Assembly: GCA_964016885.1 (NCBI GenBank)
Contig: OZ024741.1
Location: forward strand, 358,980,001 to 359,044,000
DNA from: Eledone cirrhosa
Lineage: Eukaryota
Reading direction: 5' to 3'
Length of the DNA: 64,000 nt
Shown here: positions 8,063 to 40,925 of the stretch, in pieces
Numbering within the stretch: position 1 is the stretch's first letter
Layout of the letters: every line of letters starts with the position of its first letter
Translations under genes and position numbers: made by a program
Notes under the pieces: model-generated
Databases searched by the model: none
What the model saw: only the letters and a program-made list of their open reading frames with translations
What the model was told of the DNA's origin: nothing

Positions 8063-9549
8063 GTGGTTTTAACGACCCCACGAGAGAGTATCCATGAACT
8101 GGAACTGGAAGCTAGCACTATGGAGAGTATCCAGCAAATAGCTAACTCCATCCACCAAAGCATTAGAGTAACAGTAGACCACCTGACTCAGCACCCCAAA
8201 CATAGACTACCTGTGTTAGACACAGAACTCAGAATGTAAAGAAGCAAAACAAATACTGTTAAGCATGAGTCTGATGCTCAAGTGACTGTTAACCCATCGC
8301 CAAATAATAATAATAATATTTCTTTCAACTAGTAATAACTATGCCTCAGATAACCCTCATTGGCTAGCAGACAAATTTTCAATTAAATTATTAATTATGG
8401 AAATATGATTAAAATATATATTGTGCTGCTTCCACAATGAAATGCACCCAGTACACTCTGTAAAATGGTTAGAAACCATGCCAAACAAAGGGTTGAGAAA
8501 ACACTTCTCTTGTGTCAAGGATATGAAAACCTCTCTTGTACTGGTGCCACAATAAAATGCATCCATGGGTTGCCTTCATTGCAAGATATATACACATATA
8601 TACATGTATAATGTAAAACAGATATTCAAATACTAAATAAAATATTGATAATTAAAAAGGAAACAAAGAAAGTATTAGAAAAACAAAAACATGAATTACA
8701 GAAATGTTTGAGATGAACAGAAAAAAGTAGATCGTATAGCTTCAAGATGGAAATAATAAATTATAAAATTATAACAATTCAGAAAAATAATGAACTACTT
8801 GAAAATATGTTTAAAATAGAAATGAAAAAAAATACATAAATATATAAAAAAAAAATTTTTAAATTCTAAATTAGAAAATATGAGTTATACAATATAATGA
8901 TTGTAGAAAAAAATACCCCCCCAAAAATTTATGAATTATACAATAAGTCATCAACACTATTTTATGTCTGCTTGCATAGGTTGAGCAATTATAAAATAAT
9001 ATATATATATATATATATATTCATTCATTCATTCATATATATATATATATATCATCATCATCATCATCATCATCGTTTAACGTCCATGTTCCACGCTTGC
9101 ATGGGTTTGGACGGGAGTTTTCCCACTTGAGGCAAGAGTGGTTGTCTTGCTCGCATAGGACTGTCTGGCGGGTTTTCTACAGTTGGATGCCCTTCCTAAC
9201 ATATATATATATACATATATATGTATATGTATGTAATGTATGTATATATATATATTACATAACTACTTTAAAAAATAATATGAAGTATTTAATGAAGTAT
9301 ATGTATTTCTATAAAAGTAGAAACCACCTTAAAAATCTACAATTTATAAATTAAAAGTTACGTAAGACATGTGTGTGTATGTGTGTGTGTGTGTGTGTGT
9401 GCAATGTATATTTTAATGCAATTTGTTAATATATATTATATTGGTATGCAAATGAGGCTAATGAGCCAATATATACATATATATACATACAAATATATAT
9501 ATATATATAATAATATATAAGATCAAAAGATGGTTAAAAGAGTTCCATG

Positions 9550-9620
9550 TATTTTATTATGCGCATTTCAAAAACAAATATCATCATGCAATAACATTTG
9601 CGTTTTCGTCAGATAAAATA
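9550..9620 (-). ncRNA. Mirror copy of the hammerhead motif (sense to the GRAMD4 pre-mRNA)
   Basis: Exact reverse complement of 9741-9811. Confidence 0.72.
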
Positions 9621-9740
9621 GGGAGACATGATATGAAGGTTAAAACACACTTGTGAATAGCGCAGTTTTAAATCAACATATATGTTGATTTAAAACTGCA
9701 CTATTCACAAGTGTGTTTTAACCTTCATATCATGTCTCCC

Positions 9741-9811
9741 TATTTTATCTGACGAAAACGCAAATGTTATTGCATGATGATATTTGTTTTTGAAATGCGC
9801 ATAATAAAATA
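9741..9811 (+). ncRNA. Minimal type I hammerhead ribozyme motif
   Basis: Stem I tattttat/ataaaata, core CTGACGA (9749-55), about 16-bp stem II, GAAA (9792-95), palindromic stem III A-TGCGCA-T, cleavage triplet AUA at 9803. Confidence 0.75.
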
Positions 9812-9937
9812 CATGGAACTCTTTTAACCATCTTTTGATCTTATATATTATTATTTATACTCCAGTCCTACAAACTGTAGAGTGCTACTTATCCGATATC
9901 TGCATTGCTTTATTGTACTACAATAAAACTCACCTCC

Positions 9938-9974
<37 letters not shown>

Positions 9975-10007
9975 AAAACATATATATACAAATATATATA
10001 CATACAA

Positions 10008-10042
<35 letters not shown>

Positions 10043-10135
10043 AAGAAAACATATATATACAAATATATATACATATATATACATACAAACATATGCACAC
10101 AAATATATATATATACAAACATATACATATATATA

Positions 10136-24796: not shown

Positions 24797-25740
24797 ATCA
24801 TCATCATCATCATCATCTTCGTTTAACGTCTATCTTCGACGCTAGCATGGGTTAGACTGGAGTTGTCCGACTTGAGGTAAGGTTGGTTGGGTGACCGTGT
24901 CTCGCTCATAGGGGACTATCTGGCAGGTTTTCTACGGCTGGATGGCCTTTCTAACACCAACCACATTTACAGTCTGGAACTGGGAACTTTTTACCATGTT
25001 ACCTACACAGCCACATTATCTCATTTATTTGGACTGGATGTTGTGGTACCAACTTTACAGAGAGAGGGTGGTGTTGGTGGGAGTGGGAGGATAGGGTAGG
25101 GATAGTGGATTGGGGTGTATATTTGGTTAAGAGGTGCCTACTGACTGTATTACTGCATAGCGCCAAAGATCTCGGTCCAGTGACATTGTCTTAGAGAGGT
25201 GCAAGTGTGTAAGGTTGGAATTTATCAAGCTCTCTGAATTGATCAAGCTCTCTGAATTTATCAAGCTCTCTGAACTTTTTCCATCCCGTTCTGACTCTGG
25301 CTACTGTACTTTCAGAGCACCCTCCACCACTGCTGATTTTATCACCCAGGTAACGGAAAGTGTCCATTATTTCTATAGAACCATCTGGGCAATAGAAGGA
25401 GCACTTGCTTCTTATTGCACCTGAGCATCGGCCACATATAAAATCTACGTTCTTAGATAGTTTACCTGTGATCCCACTACATCTTTTATGTACCCATAGT
25501 TTGCATTTGGGACATAAAATGGAATTTCTGCCTACTCCTTTCCTACACACTGAGCATGGCCATTTCCTTGAGGGCACCTGTGCCCTATTTTCCTTTCTAC
25601 AAACTAGAACCTTAGTCTTAGACAAGTTAACTTTAAGGCCTTTTGATTCTAGGACATTCTTCCATGTTTGGAATTTCTTTAGTTCAGCCATAGATTCAGC
25701 TATGAGAGTTAGATCATCTGTGTATAGGAGTTCCCATGGG
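24797..25740 (-). mobile_element. Truncated RTE LINE of a related subfamily (RT + PHD fragment, rearranged 3' part)
   Basis: PWELLYTDD...KWPCSVCRKGVGRNSILCPKCKLWVHKRC...FRYLGD; (CAT)n tail at about 24800. Confidence 0.85.
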
Positions 25741-26499
25741 CATATATATACATACACAAACATGTATATATATATATAAGTCCCACATTCAATCGGGGGT
25801 AACCACAGTAAGGTACTCAATACATTAGTAGAGTGTAAACATCAAATTTAATATATAAATGGCTTCTACAGGACTATAACTGTTTCATTCCAATGATTTT
25901 TTTCGAATGAAAAAGTTCTAGTCCTCTAGAAGCCTTTTCTCTCTCCTTCTCTCTCTCTCTCTCTCTCTCTCTGTCTATATATATATATAGAGAGAGATAT
26001 TTATACATATATATAAATGTAATCTCAGTTTTTCGAGTAATAATAATAACATTTGATTCGTTTGCAATTATGCAAACACCCTTTTTAAAGCCATGTCAGT
26101 AGAATGACCTCGTCATTCTTGCTCTTGTGTTGGCATGTAAACAGAACTTCAAACACTAATGTTTCTGGGTGATTACCCTTCATCAGTACAGTGTACTGCT
26201 TACCTGCCAACTGTCAGAGCTAGTGAAAATATATATGATATTTTCTAAAATATACAGTGACTGATCAGCCTGATTTGCATATTAGCAGACTCCCTGATCA
26301 GTCAGATCTGGATATTAGCAGATGTTACACGATGATGATATATATATATATCCTCATCATCATCATGTTTATATATTGTTGAAAAACTATCAACCTGTAA
26401 ACTGTATTTTTCTCACAGGAATAATGACATTAAAGAGACAGATGTGTGCAAAGTGAAGCTGCATACAAGCATGCGCTGCATTATAATTTTGTCTGATAC

Positions 26500-27740: not shown

Positions 27741-28202
27741 ATGTTTGCAATATTGATTTAACATCTCATTGGAGGAGAGCTAAAGAGAATGTCCCCCACC
27801 TCACCTCACACACATACACACTGTTTTTTTGTATTTTGTTATTTAAAGTATTTCAGCTTGACAAAATGTTTAAGAAGTTCGCTTTACAATCATAAGGTTC
27901 TCAGTTTCATCCCATGTGACATCTTGGGCAAATATCTTGACCGAAGACTTGTAAATTGAATTGCAAATATTTCTGCGTGAAATATTTGATATTCCCACAA
28001 TAGGTGCAGGCATAGCCATGTAGTCTGCTTTGAGGTTTCAAGTTTGAGTCCATAACATGATATCTTAGACAAGTGTATTTTTTTTACAATAGCATCAGGT
28101 TGACCAATGTTTTGTGAGTGAAATTTTGAACACAGAAACTGTACAAAAGCCCAATCTTATAAATGTATCATCATCATCATTCACTTTCCCTGATTATATA
28201 TA

Positions 28203-30120
28203 TAAAGATATGAAGACGGAGAAGGCAACCGGTCCATCGGGTATAGCTGCCGAGATGCTGAAGGCATCTGGGTCGGTAGGTCACACCATAACCACACGTA
28301 TTGTTAACCAGGTAAAACTAGAAGGTGTCATACCAAAGGATTGGTGCAGTAGCATTATTGTCAACTGCTACAAAGGTAAAGGTGATGCACTAGATAGAGG
28401 AAACTATAGATGTATAAAGCTGATGGACCAGGTCATGAAAGTAACAGAAAGAGTTATAGCACAGTTGATTAAGGACCAGGTGAAACTAGATGAGATGCAA
28501 TTTGGGTTTGTGCCAGGAAGAGGCACCACTGATGCCCTCTTCCTTGTGAGACAGTTACAGAAAAAGTACCTAGCTAAAGGTAAGCCGCTCTACCTTGCAT
28601 TCGTCGATCTCGAGAAAGCCTTTGACAGAGTTCACCGTGCTATAATCTGGTGAGCTCTTAGAAAACTAGTAGATGAATGGCTTGTGAAAGCTGTACAAGC
28701 AGTCAGCAAAGTTAGGATTAGCAATGACTATAGCGAGGAATTTAGCGTACAGGTTGGTGTCCACCAGGGCTCTGTTCTTAGCACTCTCCTGTTCATCATA
28801 GTCCTGCAGGCAATAACGGAGGAGTTTAAGACCGGATGCCCATGGGAACTCCTGTATGCAGATGACCTCGCACTTATAGCTGAATCTATGGTAGAACTAG
28901 AGAAGAAATTCCAAACTTGGAAGCAGGGACTAGAGAGAAAGGGTCTCAGGGTCAACCTGACAAAGACTAAGGTCCTTGTAAGTAGACGAGAAAATAGAAC
29001 CCAGATCCCCTCAGGGAAATGGCCTTGCTCAGTATGTAGAAAGGGTGTAGGTAGGAACACCATTCTCTGCCCCAAATGTAAACAATGGGTACACAAGAGA
29101 TGTAGCGGGATCTCAGGGAGCTTAACTAAGAATGTAGGCTTCACATGTAGCAGCTGTGCTGGGACAGCAAGCAGCAAACAGCCACAGGAAACAAGTACCA
29201 CCAATCTCTGGGAGGGCTCTGTTGAAACAGTAGACAGCTTCTACTAGCTAGGTGACCGAATTAGCAGCGGAGGTGGGTGTTCGGAAAGTACAATAACTAG
29301 GGTAAGAACGGGATGGAAGAAGTTCAGGGAGCTACTGCCACTGCTAGCTGCAAAAGGCTTTTCCCTTAAAATGAAAGGCAGACTCTATGATGCGTGTATA
29401 CGAACAGCAATGTTACATGGTAGTGAGACCTGGGCGCTGTCTGTGGAAGACTTGCGTAGATTAGAAAGAAACGAAGCCTGCATGCTCCGATGAATGTGTA
29501 ATAGTAATATACGCGAACGGCAAAGCATAAATGAATTGAGAGAGAGACTGAGCATAAGAGGAATCAAATGCTGTGTGCAGGAGAGGCGGTTGCGTTGGTA
29601 TGTACATGTGATGCGTATGAAGGATGACAGCTGCATAAAAAGGTGCAGAGCACTAGACGTCGATGGAGACAGCAGAGTGGGGAGACCCAAGAAGACCTGG
29701 GATGAGGTGATAAAAGCCGACCTTACCCAATTACACCTCTCAAAGGCGATGACACACGACCGTGACCTCTGGCGTCACGCAGTAATACAGAGTACCCGAC
29801 CTCCCATGGGTACAAGCTGAAGCATATAGACAATATGCCCCCACACCCTACCACTGCAAAGTGGTCGTGGAGGTGCCATGGCAAAACAGCACCCAGCCCA
29901 CACTGTAAAGTGGACGTGTAGGCACCACGGAAAAAAGCACCCAGCACTTACTGTAAATGAGGTTGGTGTTAGGAAGGGCATCCGGCTGTAGAAATCAAGC
30001 CAAAATCAGTTCCTGTATGAGCAAGGCATGGTCAGCCGACCAGACACTGCCCACAACAGGACAACTCGTCTAACCCATGCTAGTGTGGAAGAACGGACGT
30101 AAAATGGTGATGATGATGAG
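28203..30120 (+). mobile_element. 5'-truncated copy of the same RTE LINE
   Basis: Colinear with 39000-40925, with several nonsense changes and small deletions; same 3'UTR and (GAT)n tail. Confidence 0.92.
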
Positions 30121-37366: not shown

Positions 37367-40300
37367 ATACTACTACCTAACTAACTCTGTCGCAGCCCAA
37401 CACACCCTGCCATTATCCCACCACCACTGTTCTTCTAGTCCTCAATTTTCCAACCGTTATGGATGGATGAGCTGAGAATAAATTTGAGCAACTCTGAATC
37501 AATAGATGAAATATGAATCTGCGAGCTACCAAGCACCCACGTGAAGCGCCAACCCAGAGACCCTTCCCTACGAGTGTCGACAAATGACCAAAACTCCGAG
37601 TTGGTACCATCAATGTAGGTTCAATGAAAGGAAGAGCAGGAGAAATCGTAGAAATGCTAGAGCGAAAGGAAATTGATATATGTTGTGTGCAAGAAACTAG
37701 ATGGAGAGGAGAGTCTGCCAGAGTCCTTGTAGGAAAAAGTCGGTGCTACAAATTTTTCTGGGTGGGAAATGACGATGGGATGGGTGGTGTAGGTATACTA
37801 CTAGCTGACAAGTGGGTAGATAAAGTAATCTCAGTGTACAGGGTAAATGCAAGAATCATTAAACTCAGACTAGTCCTGAACAAAACAATTACCACAATAA
37901 TATCAGCTTACGCACCCCAATCGGGGCTGCCAGACGAACTTAAGGATAGGTTTTACGAGTCCCTAATGCACACTACTGCTCTAACAGACGACAATGACTT
38001 CCTAATCATCGCAGGAGATTTTAACGGACACGTAGGTAAACACTGCGACGGCTTCAATAGAGTACATAGAGGCCATGGGGTTGGCACAAGGAATGAGGAA
38101 GGATTCAGACTTCTAGAATTCTGCGACGCCAATGACATGTCGATATGTAACACAAACTTTAAAAAACCCGACAACCACCTGATCACCTATAGATCAGGGG
38201 AGCACTCTAGTCAGTTAGATTTTATCCTCATCAGAGGACGTGACAGATGGACGGTCGTAAACACAAAAGCCTTCCCTAGTGAGGAATGTACATCCCAACA
38301 TAGCTTAGTTGTCAGCGACCTCACGGTCAGAACTAGACGAACCCGGAAACAGAGGCCAACCTGGAGAAGAAAGATCTGGAAGCTGAAAGTCCCCTCAACC
38401 AGTAACAGATTTAAAGATATTTTACTCAACGCCTACGACAGTAAAGAAGAACAGATAAAGACATTTAATGTAGAAGAGAACTGGGACTTCCTAAAAAACA
38501 ATTTACTCGAGGCGACGGATGAGGTCTGTGGCTGGAGTAAGACCTCAAGCAGGAGGAGAGTGACTTGGTGGTGGAACAATAAGGTAGATGAAGCAGTTAA
38601 GGCCAAGAGACAGGCATGGAAAGAATGGAAGAACGGGGGGAGCAGGGTACATTACATAGAGACCAAGAGGGAAGCTAGGCGACAAGTATACTTAGCTAGG
38701 AGGGAAGCAGAGGATAGAAAATTCAAGCATGTTTTGCAACGTGAAGACCAGAAACAGGAGGTATTCAAGAATGCGAGGCAGTGTGTCAGAGATAGTTGCG
38801 ATGTCATTGGAGAGAAGTGTATCCGGAATGATAAAGGTGAGCTTGCCCTCACAAGTGCTGAGAAGAAAGATGCATGGAAGAGTCATTATGATAGATTACT
38901 AAATGAGGAGAATGCATGGGAAGAAGAGACCCTACCCCAAGTAGACCCTATAGAGGGACCAGCAGTACAAGTCAGCAGCAGCGTAGTAAGTAAGGCAATC
39001 AAAGATATGAAGATGGGGAAGGCAGCCGGTCCATCGGGTATAGCTGCCGAGATGCTGAAGGCATCTGGGTCTGTAGGTCACACTATAACCACACGTATTG
39101 TTAACCAGGTAATACTAGAAGGTGCCATACCAAAAGATTGGTGCAGTAGCATCATTGTCAACTGCTACAAAGGTAAAGGCGATGCACTAGATAGAGGAAA
39201 CTATAGAGGTATAAAATTGATGGACCAGGTCATGAAAGTAACAGAAAGAGTTATAGCAGGGTTAGGGACCGGGTGAAAATAGACGAGATGCAATTTGGGT
39301 TTGTACCAGGAAGAGGCACCACTGCTGCCCTCTTCCTTGTGAGGCAATTACAGGAAAAGTACCTAGCTAAAAGTAAGCCACTCTACTTGGCATTTGTCGA
39401 CCTTGAGAAAGCCTTTAACAGAGTTCCACGTGCTGTAATCTGGTGGGCTCTTAGAAAACTAGGAGTAGATGAATGGCTTGTGAAAGCGGTACAAGCCATG
39501 TATAGGGGAGCAGTCAGCGAAGTTAGGATTAGCAATGAGTATAGCGAGGAATTTAGCGTACAGGTTGGGGTCCACCAGGGCTCTGTTCTTAGCCCCCTCC
39601 TGTTCATCATAGTCCTGCAGGCAATAACGGATGAGTTTAAGACCGGATGCCCATGGGAACTCCTGTATGCTGATGACCTCGCACTTATAGCTGAGTCTAT
39701 GGTAGAACTAGAGAATAAATTCCAAACTTGGAAGCAGGGCCTAGAAAGAAAGGGCCTCAAAGTCAACATGACAAAGACTAAAGTCCTTGTAAGTAGACGA
39801 GAAAACAGAACCCAGATCCCCTCAGGGAAATGGCCTTGCTCAGTATGTAGGAAAGGTGTAGGTAGGAACTCCATTCTCTGCCCCAAATGCAAACAATGGG
39901 TACACAGGAGATGTAGCGGGATCTCAGGAAGCTTAATTAAGAATGTAGGCTTCACATGCAGCAGCTGTGCTGAGACAGCAAGCAGCAAACAGCCACAGGA
40001 AACAAGTACCACCAATCTCTGGGAGGGCTCTGTAGAAACAGTAGACAGCTTCTGCTACCTAGGTGACCGAATTAGCAGCGGAGGTGGGTGTTCAGAAAGT
40101 ACAATAACTAGGGTAAGAACGGGATGGAAGAAGTTTAGGGAACTACTACCACTGCTAGCTGCAAAAGGCTTCTCCCTCAGAATGAAAGGCAGACTGTATG
40201 ATGCGTGTATCCGAACAGCAATGTTGCATGGTAGTGAGACCTGGGCGCTGAAGGTGGAAGACTTACGTAGATTAGAGAGAAACGAAGCCTGCATGCTCCG

Positions 40301-40925
40301 ATGGATGTGTAACAGTAATATACGTGAACGACAAAGCATAAAGGAATTGAGAGAGAGACTGAGCATAAGAGGAATCAAATGCTGTGTGCAGGAGAGGCGG
40401 TTGCGCTGGTATGGACATGTGATGCGTATGGAGGATGACAGCTGCATAAAAAGGTGCAGAGCACTAGAAGTTGTGGAAACCGCGGAGTGGGGAGACCCAA
40501 GATGACCTGGGATGAGGTGATAAAAGCCGACCTTACCCAATTACACCTTTCAAAGGCAATGACACACGACCGTGACTTCTGGCGTCACGCAGTAATACAG
40601 AGTACCCGACCTCCCATGGGTACAAGCTGAAGCATATAGACAATATGCCCCCAAACCCCCCACCTCAAAGTGGTCGTGGAGGTGCCACGGCAAAAAAGCA
40701 CCCAGCCCACACTGTAAAGTGGACGTGTAGGCGCCACGAAAAAACACCCAGCACTCACTGTAAATGAGGTTGGTGTTAGGAAGGGCATCCAGCTGTAGAA
40801 ATCAAGACAAATCAGTTCCTATATGAGCAAGGCATGGTCAGCCGACCAGACACTGCCCACAACAGGACAACCTGTCTAACCCATGCTAGCGTGGAAGAAG
40901 GGACGTAAAACGGTGATGATGATGA
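37367..40925 (+). mobile_element. Near-full-length RTE-clade LINE (APE endonuclease + RT with internal PHD finger), (GAT)n tail
   Basis: APE motifs (LRVGTINV, VQETRW, SAYAPQ, AGDFNGHVG, SQH) and RT motifs (QFGF, FVDLEKAF, GVHQGSVLSP, LYADD, YLG); 3' tail gatgatgatgat; TA tracts on both sides. Confidence 0.93.
37513..40630 (+). pseudogene. Disrupted single ORF of the RTE LINE
   Basis: In-frame TGA at 37585; net 4-nt loss near 39260 and 1-nt loss near 40473 relative to the 28.2-30.1 kb copy; original stop TGA 40628-40630. Confidence 0.85.

Follow-up and report, generated by a model that had tools for sequence, protein, structure and literature searches.

A hammerhead-bearing palindrome in Eledone cirrhosa and its likely origin from two head-to-head end pieces of a Hydra-clade Penelope-like element

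A 64-kb stretch of the Eledone cirrhosa genome (hereafter the window) was found to contain an inverted repeat with a spacer of 0, whose arms (9502-9680 and 9681-9859) are 99% complementary. The near-perfect fold-back that a sequence-only reading had placed at 9507-9854, centred at 9680/9681, is real and contains a single mismatch (9661/9700). The (TA)n surroundings and the AATAAA named in that reading are both present, and the 3' extension that it had called unique is the tail of a repeat family, which runs on into an ORF in full-length copies. The features are listed in Table 1, in which the position of site B is blurred by TA-richness. The AATAAA was rejected as a poly(A) signal, since about 15 nt further on the copies end in (TA)n and lack poly(A), and the tail is continued by the ORF. 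No target-site duplication was distinguishable in the (TA)n-rich flanks of the palindrome.

Table 1. Features of the palindromic insertion, in window positions
Feature	Position	Strand	Basis or remark
Left target flank, (TA)n-rich	9468..9506	.	sequence
Inverted arm, same sequence as the direct arm, running between the fixed 5' site and an end that lacks the tail (site B)	9507..9681	-	inverted-repeat and comparison data
Mirror hammerhead motif, core 9612-9606, predicted cut after 9558 of the minus strand	9550..9620	-	descriptor match
Head-to-head junction, likely transcription start (cap site)	9680..9681	.	both arms begin at the A of TTTC/ATATG and overlap by 2 nt
Direct arm, terminal pLTR part of the PLE placed by motifs in the Hydra clade, running between the fixed 5' site and the end of the tail (site A)	9680..9942	+	98.9% identity (263 nt) with the 5' pLTR of L060, a full-length copy
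Type I hammerhead motif	9741..9811	+	descriptor match; pairing kept in all 7 common variants of the stems
Tail, confined to one arm and spanning about 90 nt from site B to site A	9855..9942	+	has AATAAA at 9922; followed directly by the 5' leader and ORF in tandem copies
Right target flank, (TA)n-rich	9943..10135	.	sequence

A type I hammerhead descriptor matched at exactly two places in the window, with cores at 9749 (+) and 9612 (-). There is thus one motif per arm, with all the parts that the sequence-only reading had named for each strand at their places. None of 100 block-wise dinucleotide shuffles gave a match with an 8-bp stem I, and the relaxed settings gave a mean of 0.01 matches per shuffle. 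The plus-strand motif consists of an 8-bp stem I (9741-9748/9804-9811), CUGACGA (9749-9755), a 15-bp stem II with one C-U mismatch (9756-9791), GAAA (9792-9795), a palindromic stem III, AUGCGCAU (9795-9802), and an AUA triplet with a predicted cut after 9803. The motif occurs on both strands because the arms are inverted. The proposed Rfam check did not return the hammerhead family among its 39 matches (E up to 5), all of which lay below the gathering scores; these were only hairpin-type miRNA models and were rejected. Therefore, the hammerhead call rests on the descriptor and on stem variation. Among 203 arms of the family, common core variation was confined to position 7 (C/U), a conservation that is partly built in, since the arms were chosen with a motif overlapping the core. 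Pairing was kept in 7 of 7 common stem variants, compared with 18 of 83 private changes (p = 6e-5). The common variants were all one-sided and none two-sided. Since stem III was computed at +4.7 kcal/mol as a hairpin and at -10.5 as an intermolecular duplex, a dimer is predicted; the modelled hammerhead would need a dimer or the help of a protein. In the RNA from 0 to +260 (position 0 of the family coordinates being window base 9680), the hammerhead fold was computed to lie 5.4 kcal/mol above the best fold. The read-through RNA of the palindrome is predicted to form a long hairpin of -286 kcal/mol that buries the hammerhead.

To judge from comparison with the whole genome (3.0 Gb), the palindrome represents the final 260 nt, comprising the pLTR end and the tail, of a young and abundant PLE of the Hydra clade, joined head to head to a tailless inverted copy inside (TA)n. 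The right arm had 528 first-look candidates, and the 40 scored were 98-100% identical. Bases 9685-9940 showed 100% identity over all 256 nt to five other loci, which bears out the earlier view of a young, mobile, ribozyme-bearing sequence linked to PLEs and inverted pLTRs. A 23-mer of the ribozyme core had 2,099 exact matches genome-wide; for a 22-mer immediately 3' of the predicted cut, the number was 8,527. Some copies extend upstream via a 1.1-kb UTR into the ORF, and five loci have the arrangement pLTR-ORF-pLTR, with 3.62-3.69 kb between the hammerheads in the four measured. The unit is a PLE of about 3.65 kb, whose ORF encodes an RT plus, at the C terminus, a GIY-YIG-type domain. The anticipated genome-wide copies and their linkage to a Penelope RT/GIY-YIG ORF were thus found, and the right arm is identical in 259 of 259 nt to an ORF-linked copy, L007. 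Neither blastn nor tblastn found an autonomous partner inside the window, and the RT ORFs of the window are LINE-type.

The open frame of the family is 771 aa long and broken near its end in L060, and 596 aa long in L032, with the motifs YRDD and LIY..YFG. Its N-terminal region has an exact DKT and has RWI replacing RWK, the linker has CNCPVKNKC (CxCx5C), and the endonuclease has CNLC (CxxC) and CLH (CxH) with a degenerate GIY-YIG. The ORF aligned end to end with 10 database relatives at 32-40%, and no CCHH motif was seen in that alignment. Among 12 aligned members, two matched Pfam RVT_1 and one GIY-YIG; the family ORF alone had no Pfam match, and searching the PDB sequences by profile gave 0 matches. 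The marks of the Hydra clade are RWK, DKT, a CxCx5C linker, CxxC and CxH in the endonuclease, and the absence of CCHH (Craig et al. 2021, PMC8557442). Since the family has these, with RWI for RWK, its placement in the clade is made by motifs. Also common to both are the C-terminal GIY-YIG-type domain, a hammerhead near the 3' end and in the pLTR, (TA)n targets, and pLTRs in tandem and inverted structures (PMC8557442). However, Hydra-clade elements are generally under 3 kb, a length described as typical and not as defining, with tails of 30-40 nt (PMC8557442), whereas the unit described here has the length given above, a 1.1-kb 3' UTR, an Asn-rich linker insert and a tail of about 90 nt. This insert of about 60 aa lies before CxCx5C (ORF residues about 590-655; L060:3168-5414) and is absent from the 10 relatives; it is reminiscent of the N-rich insertions in the Penelope elements of Adineta (PMC3846280).

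The Hydra clade includes Hydra-1_Obim of Octopus bimaculoides and Penelope-13_HM, and for the latter an inverted copy, truncated at its 5' end, is recorded, its hammerhead being listed for both strands, as in the window (PMC8557442). The protein was about 40-45% identical to that of Hydra-1_Obim over about 100 residues (hand count). The hammerhead, with its long stem II and AUGCGCAU stem III, is unlike that of Hydra-1_Obim, whose motif had 0 matches in the genome of the window. Membership of the Hydra-1_Obim family was rejected, since the hammerhead differs and the sequence identity is not high. By these comparisons, the object is a stub of a new family in a known clade; by its hammerhead, the family differs from Hydra-1_Obim, the one octopus Hydra family that has been described.

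The ends of the arms were compared in two samples. Sample 1 comprised 99 arms, all but one of the 100 listed of the 2,099 core-motif matches, along one contig. Their 3' ends lay at site B (+160 to +180) in 59, at site A (+255 to +265) in 33 and elsewhere in 7; 45 of the 99 had 5' ends at -5 to +6, and an inverted partner was present for 56. Sample 2 comprised 96 arms picked 3' of the cut site and partly overlapping sample 1. Here, 29 started at -5 to +6, one of them a divergent long copy, so that 28 compare with 3.4 expected. About half of the short arms begin at one base (9680/9681).

Head-to-head candidates numbered 84 in 160 loci, and 82 were kept after two at locus edges were dropped. These comprised 69 A+B pairs, one B+B, no A+A, one B+other and 11 with ORF-side ends; when both ends lay in the pLTR end sites, one tailed arm was paired with one tailless arm in 69 of 70 (p = 6e-20 versus an even split). 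The window copy is a typical A+B pair. In many pairs, part of what the B arm contains is lacking from the A arm, and several A arms end at +151 to +172, close to B. A one-ended tail is known for PLEs (PMC8557442; PMC3846280). Genome-wide, 2,185 head-to-head junctions at the start site were counted, with varied centres, and some of them were short snap-backs rather than full palindromes. The 50 listed were classified by hand count into 22 four-base overlaps, 5 two-base overlaps (the exact type of the window), 16 with a G on at least one arm, one mutated G type and 6 others. A cDNA end can copy itself, as is shown by short snap-backs inserted at the start site in L066, L130, L132 and L136. Exact read-through junctions, from the tail into the ORF leader, numbered 216 in the genome. 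At L009:1311-2235, two palindromic stubs lie tail to tail in one (TA)n tract, an instance of repeated target use.

When one base stood between a (TA)n ending in T and the start motif (131 matches), it was a G in 85, an A in 9, a C in 3 and a T in 3 of the 100 listed (hand count). The base of the element itself at this position is C, so the G is non-templated. The same design at an internal C/ATAT site gave one match, a C. In the other (TA)n phase (77 matches), the inserted base was C in 40, G in 29 and A in 8; some RNAs may thus start one base upstream, or variants of the run may blur the count. The base before 101 truncated arms starting at 0 was C in 43, T in 26, G in 25 and A in 7, although these arms are not independent and the partner sequence can supply the preceding base. 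Among the 50 listed of the 2,185 junctions, a G was present on both arms in 2, and 7 of the 16 G-bearing ones can also be read as an arm starting at the templated C; the junction of the window has no G. RNA structure was rejected as the cause of the 5' stop, since no stable fold surrounds the site (z -0.69), and so was microhomology alone, since a second C/ATAT, 46 nt downstream, is no hotspot. The TCATAT context of the site is one that we take to resemble an initiator motif. In L1, an extra G at 5' junctions is the mark of a copied cap (PMC11702581). By analogy, the non-templated G is likely the mark of a copied mRNA cap, and, from the arm starts, 9680/9681 is likely the transcription start (cap site). 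Neither cap-G nor twin priming in PLEs was found in the literature searched, a scope outside which the subscription papers on the Penelope promoter and structure fell.

The direct observations are that the sequence belongs to the family, that arms have two fixed 3' ends (A with the tail, B lacking it) and a single fixed 5' site, that each pair combines an A arm with a B arm, and that a non-templated G occurs at the 5' site. On this pattern, we consider it fairly probable that two end-pieces were joined head to head, likely in one insertion, with both cut target strands priming RT on capped sense RNA. The endonuclease of the element would nick both strands of (TA)n. Of the resulting 3'-OH ends, one would prime at A and its counterpart at B, which is AU-rich and lies within the transcript's 5' pLTR. 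Each cDNA would extend to the cap and run off there, in many cases with an extra base copied from it, and the two cDNA ends would anneal through the start-site ATAT (a 2-nt overlap in the window copy) before repair. The hammerhead would be carried along uncut, and it would more likely act on long precursor RNAs than on stubs.

Self-priming would produce the same A+B pairs with one primer, if the cDNA running from A to the RNA 5' end folded back at the ATAT and copied itself to B, and later central deletions made the pairs uneven; a variant on an antisense template was proposed in 2013 (PMC3846280). The four-nt-overlap palindromes, which are the commonest junction (22 of the 50 listed of 2,185), and the existence of short snap-backs speak for this course. 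However, B arms often reach the start site with a G of their own while the A arm stops at +90 to +210, the double-G junctions (2 of the 50 listed) need two run-offs, and a G on the sense strand at the 5' end fits a sense template rather than an antisense one. We therefore regard self-priming as rather unlikely; the anatomy of the junctions, with its extra G, speaks more for twin priming, with a capped sense RNA as template, than for the antisense self-priming that has been published.

The sequence-only reading had taken the palindrome for a separate non-coding element, i.e., a non-autonomous, retrozyme- or SINE-like ribozyme element with short masters of its own, mobilised in trans by the PLE protein. 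Its fixed ends, thousands of copies and probable promoter at the 5' end are as such an element would have them, and animal retrozymes have been argued to derive from pLTRs (bioRxiv 10.64898/2026.07.22.740005). Non-LTR retrozymes are likewise short, non-coding and PLE-related, with a type I hammerhead, but they are head-to-tail tandem repeats, whereas the window holds a head-to-head pair with a near-identical autonomous parent. No short-unit head-to-tail tandem was present among the 99 arms, no variant above 6% was private to the short arms, and the subfamily markers were common to 96 short and 107 long arms; a non-LTR retrozyme was rejected on these grounds. Moreover, junctions vary between copies, which means that every palindrome is made anew. 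With a right arm identical to that of an ORF-linked copy, a separate element is improbable, although some re-mobilisation of solo stubs may occur. Chimeric reads can make perfect palindromes, and an assembly or sequencing fold-back was considered too, but the flanks past the arms show no mirror symmetry, one base and the tail distinguish the two arms, and the genome has 2,185 junctions of this kind, whose centres vary, which makes an artefact scarcely credible.

The twin-priming model with a single template did not extend to the long copies. The ORF-leading arms (32, of which 30 distinct) came from 30 listed of the 216 read-through matches, and 18 distinct ones pass position 0. None of these 18 ORF-leading pLTRs stopped at the start site, compared with 45 of 82 hammerhead-selected arms (p = 7e-6); full-length copies starting at the cap site were thus rejected. 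Therefore, a simple model in which a single capped mRNA accounts for all copies fails, and another template has to be invoked. Since no ORF-leading arm ends at 0, the long copies would use a template without an end there, and circular RNA, which has been proposed for PLEs (PMC4209133), read-through RNA or strand transfer would each fit. Our tentative suggestion, which we think doubtful as a whole, is that there are two template pools: twin-primed capped sense RNA may give 'strong-stop'-like stubs and palindromes with the cap G, and an end-less template, i.e., a hammerhead-made circle or strand transfer to the 3' pLTR, may give the long and tandem copies. If true, it would account at once for the tail, for the inverted pLTR and for what the hammerhead does. 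Ribozyme-cut RNA as the template would be at most a minor route. Only 3 of 96 arms started at +121 to +127, the footprint of the predicted cut, versus 2.0 expected. Genome-wide, the predicted cut site had 65 matches (28 small internal deletions and 37 junctions) and the control site 13, but the control-site design shuts out (TA)n-joined ends, and without such ends the counts were 11 and about 10.

Related arrangements are known from other systems. Truncated PLEs of Schistosoma contain opposite-strand pairs of minimal hammerheads (Cervera and De la Pena 2014, PMC4209133), likewise about 100-700 bp apart, with a palindromic helix III and a dimer requirement. The junction anatomy and mechanism given here for the Eledone family have no counterpart in the accessible text of that paper. 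The purified Poseidon PAc of Anolis cuts both strands of AT-rich DNA in vitro (Frangieh et al. 2024, PMC11167929); its RT starts at two internal sites that delimit the tail, and its main template is uncut RNA. Poseidon PAc belongs to a different clade and its hammerhead overlaps the ORF start (PMC11167929), unlike the present hammerhead, which is followed by the first in-frame ATGs about 190-220 nt downstream; inverted pairs and the 5' junction are not treated in the accessible text of PMC11167929. In LINE-1, the second target end likewise primes internally and an extra G is present at full-length 5' junctions, and the pairs in which the A arm lacks B-arm sequence resemble L1 twin priming (PMC11702581). 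However, the second site of LINE-1 is variable and its two cDNAs abut (PMC11702581), whereas the PLE family has two fixed sites, and its two cDNAs often cover one stretch in common, up to the 5' end.

The object itself is routine PLE debris, and opposite-strand hammerhead pairs from truncated PLEs are already in print (PMC4209133); the contribution of the family is its sharply defined anatomy. The origin of head-to-head pLTRs and one-sided tails, and the choice between sense and antisense template, have been called unresolved (PMC3846280, PMC8557442). The value of the family is as a readout: it offers thousands of young copies whose ends are fixed, pairs that keep almost strictly to A+B, and a G resembling that of a cap. 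It gives base-exact predictions, namely a start at 9680 and priming near 9846-9859 and 9940-9942. Read-through transcription of the palindrome would yield a hairpin RNA of about 170 bp, a possible source of small RNA.

Several other elements were seen in the window and beside the copies. A LINE-type element with an AP endonuclease, an RT and a C-terminal PHD finger lies at 37588-40505 (+) of the window, and other copies of it, differing in completeness, are fragments at 28093-29247 (+) and 25191-25841 (-). A (CAT)n-headed, SINE-like short repeat at window 9053-9200 also flanks the loci L004, L021 and L032. A fragment of a second Hydra-like family, with 61% protein identity, adjoins the full-length copy at L060:426-1040, and another PLE family (YVDD, YIG motif with histidines) stands beside copies at L032:4646-5704 and L062:7174-8568. 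In L060 (start site L060:2824), positions -457, +271 and +288 mark an octamer resembling a U12-type donor, in the 3' UTR, and one resembling a U12-type branch site just after the tail, with AG and AC behind it; both octamers could be due to chance. Eight ATGs lie between the putative cap and the second in-frame ATG of the ORF in L060, so an intron or a ribozyme cut may be needed for translation.
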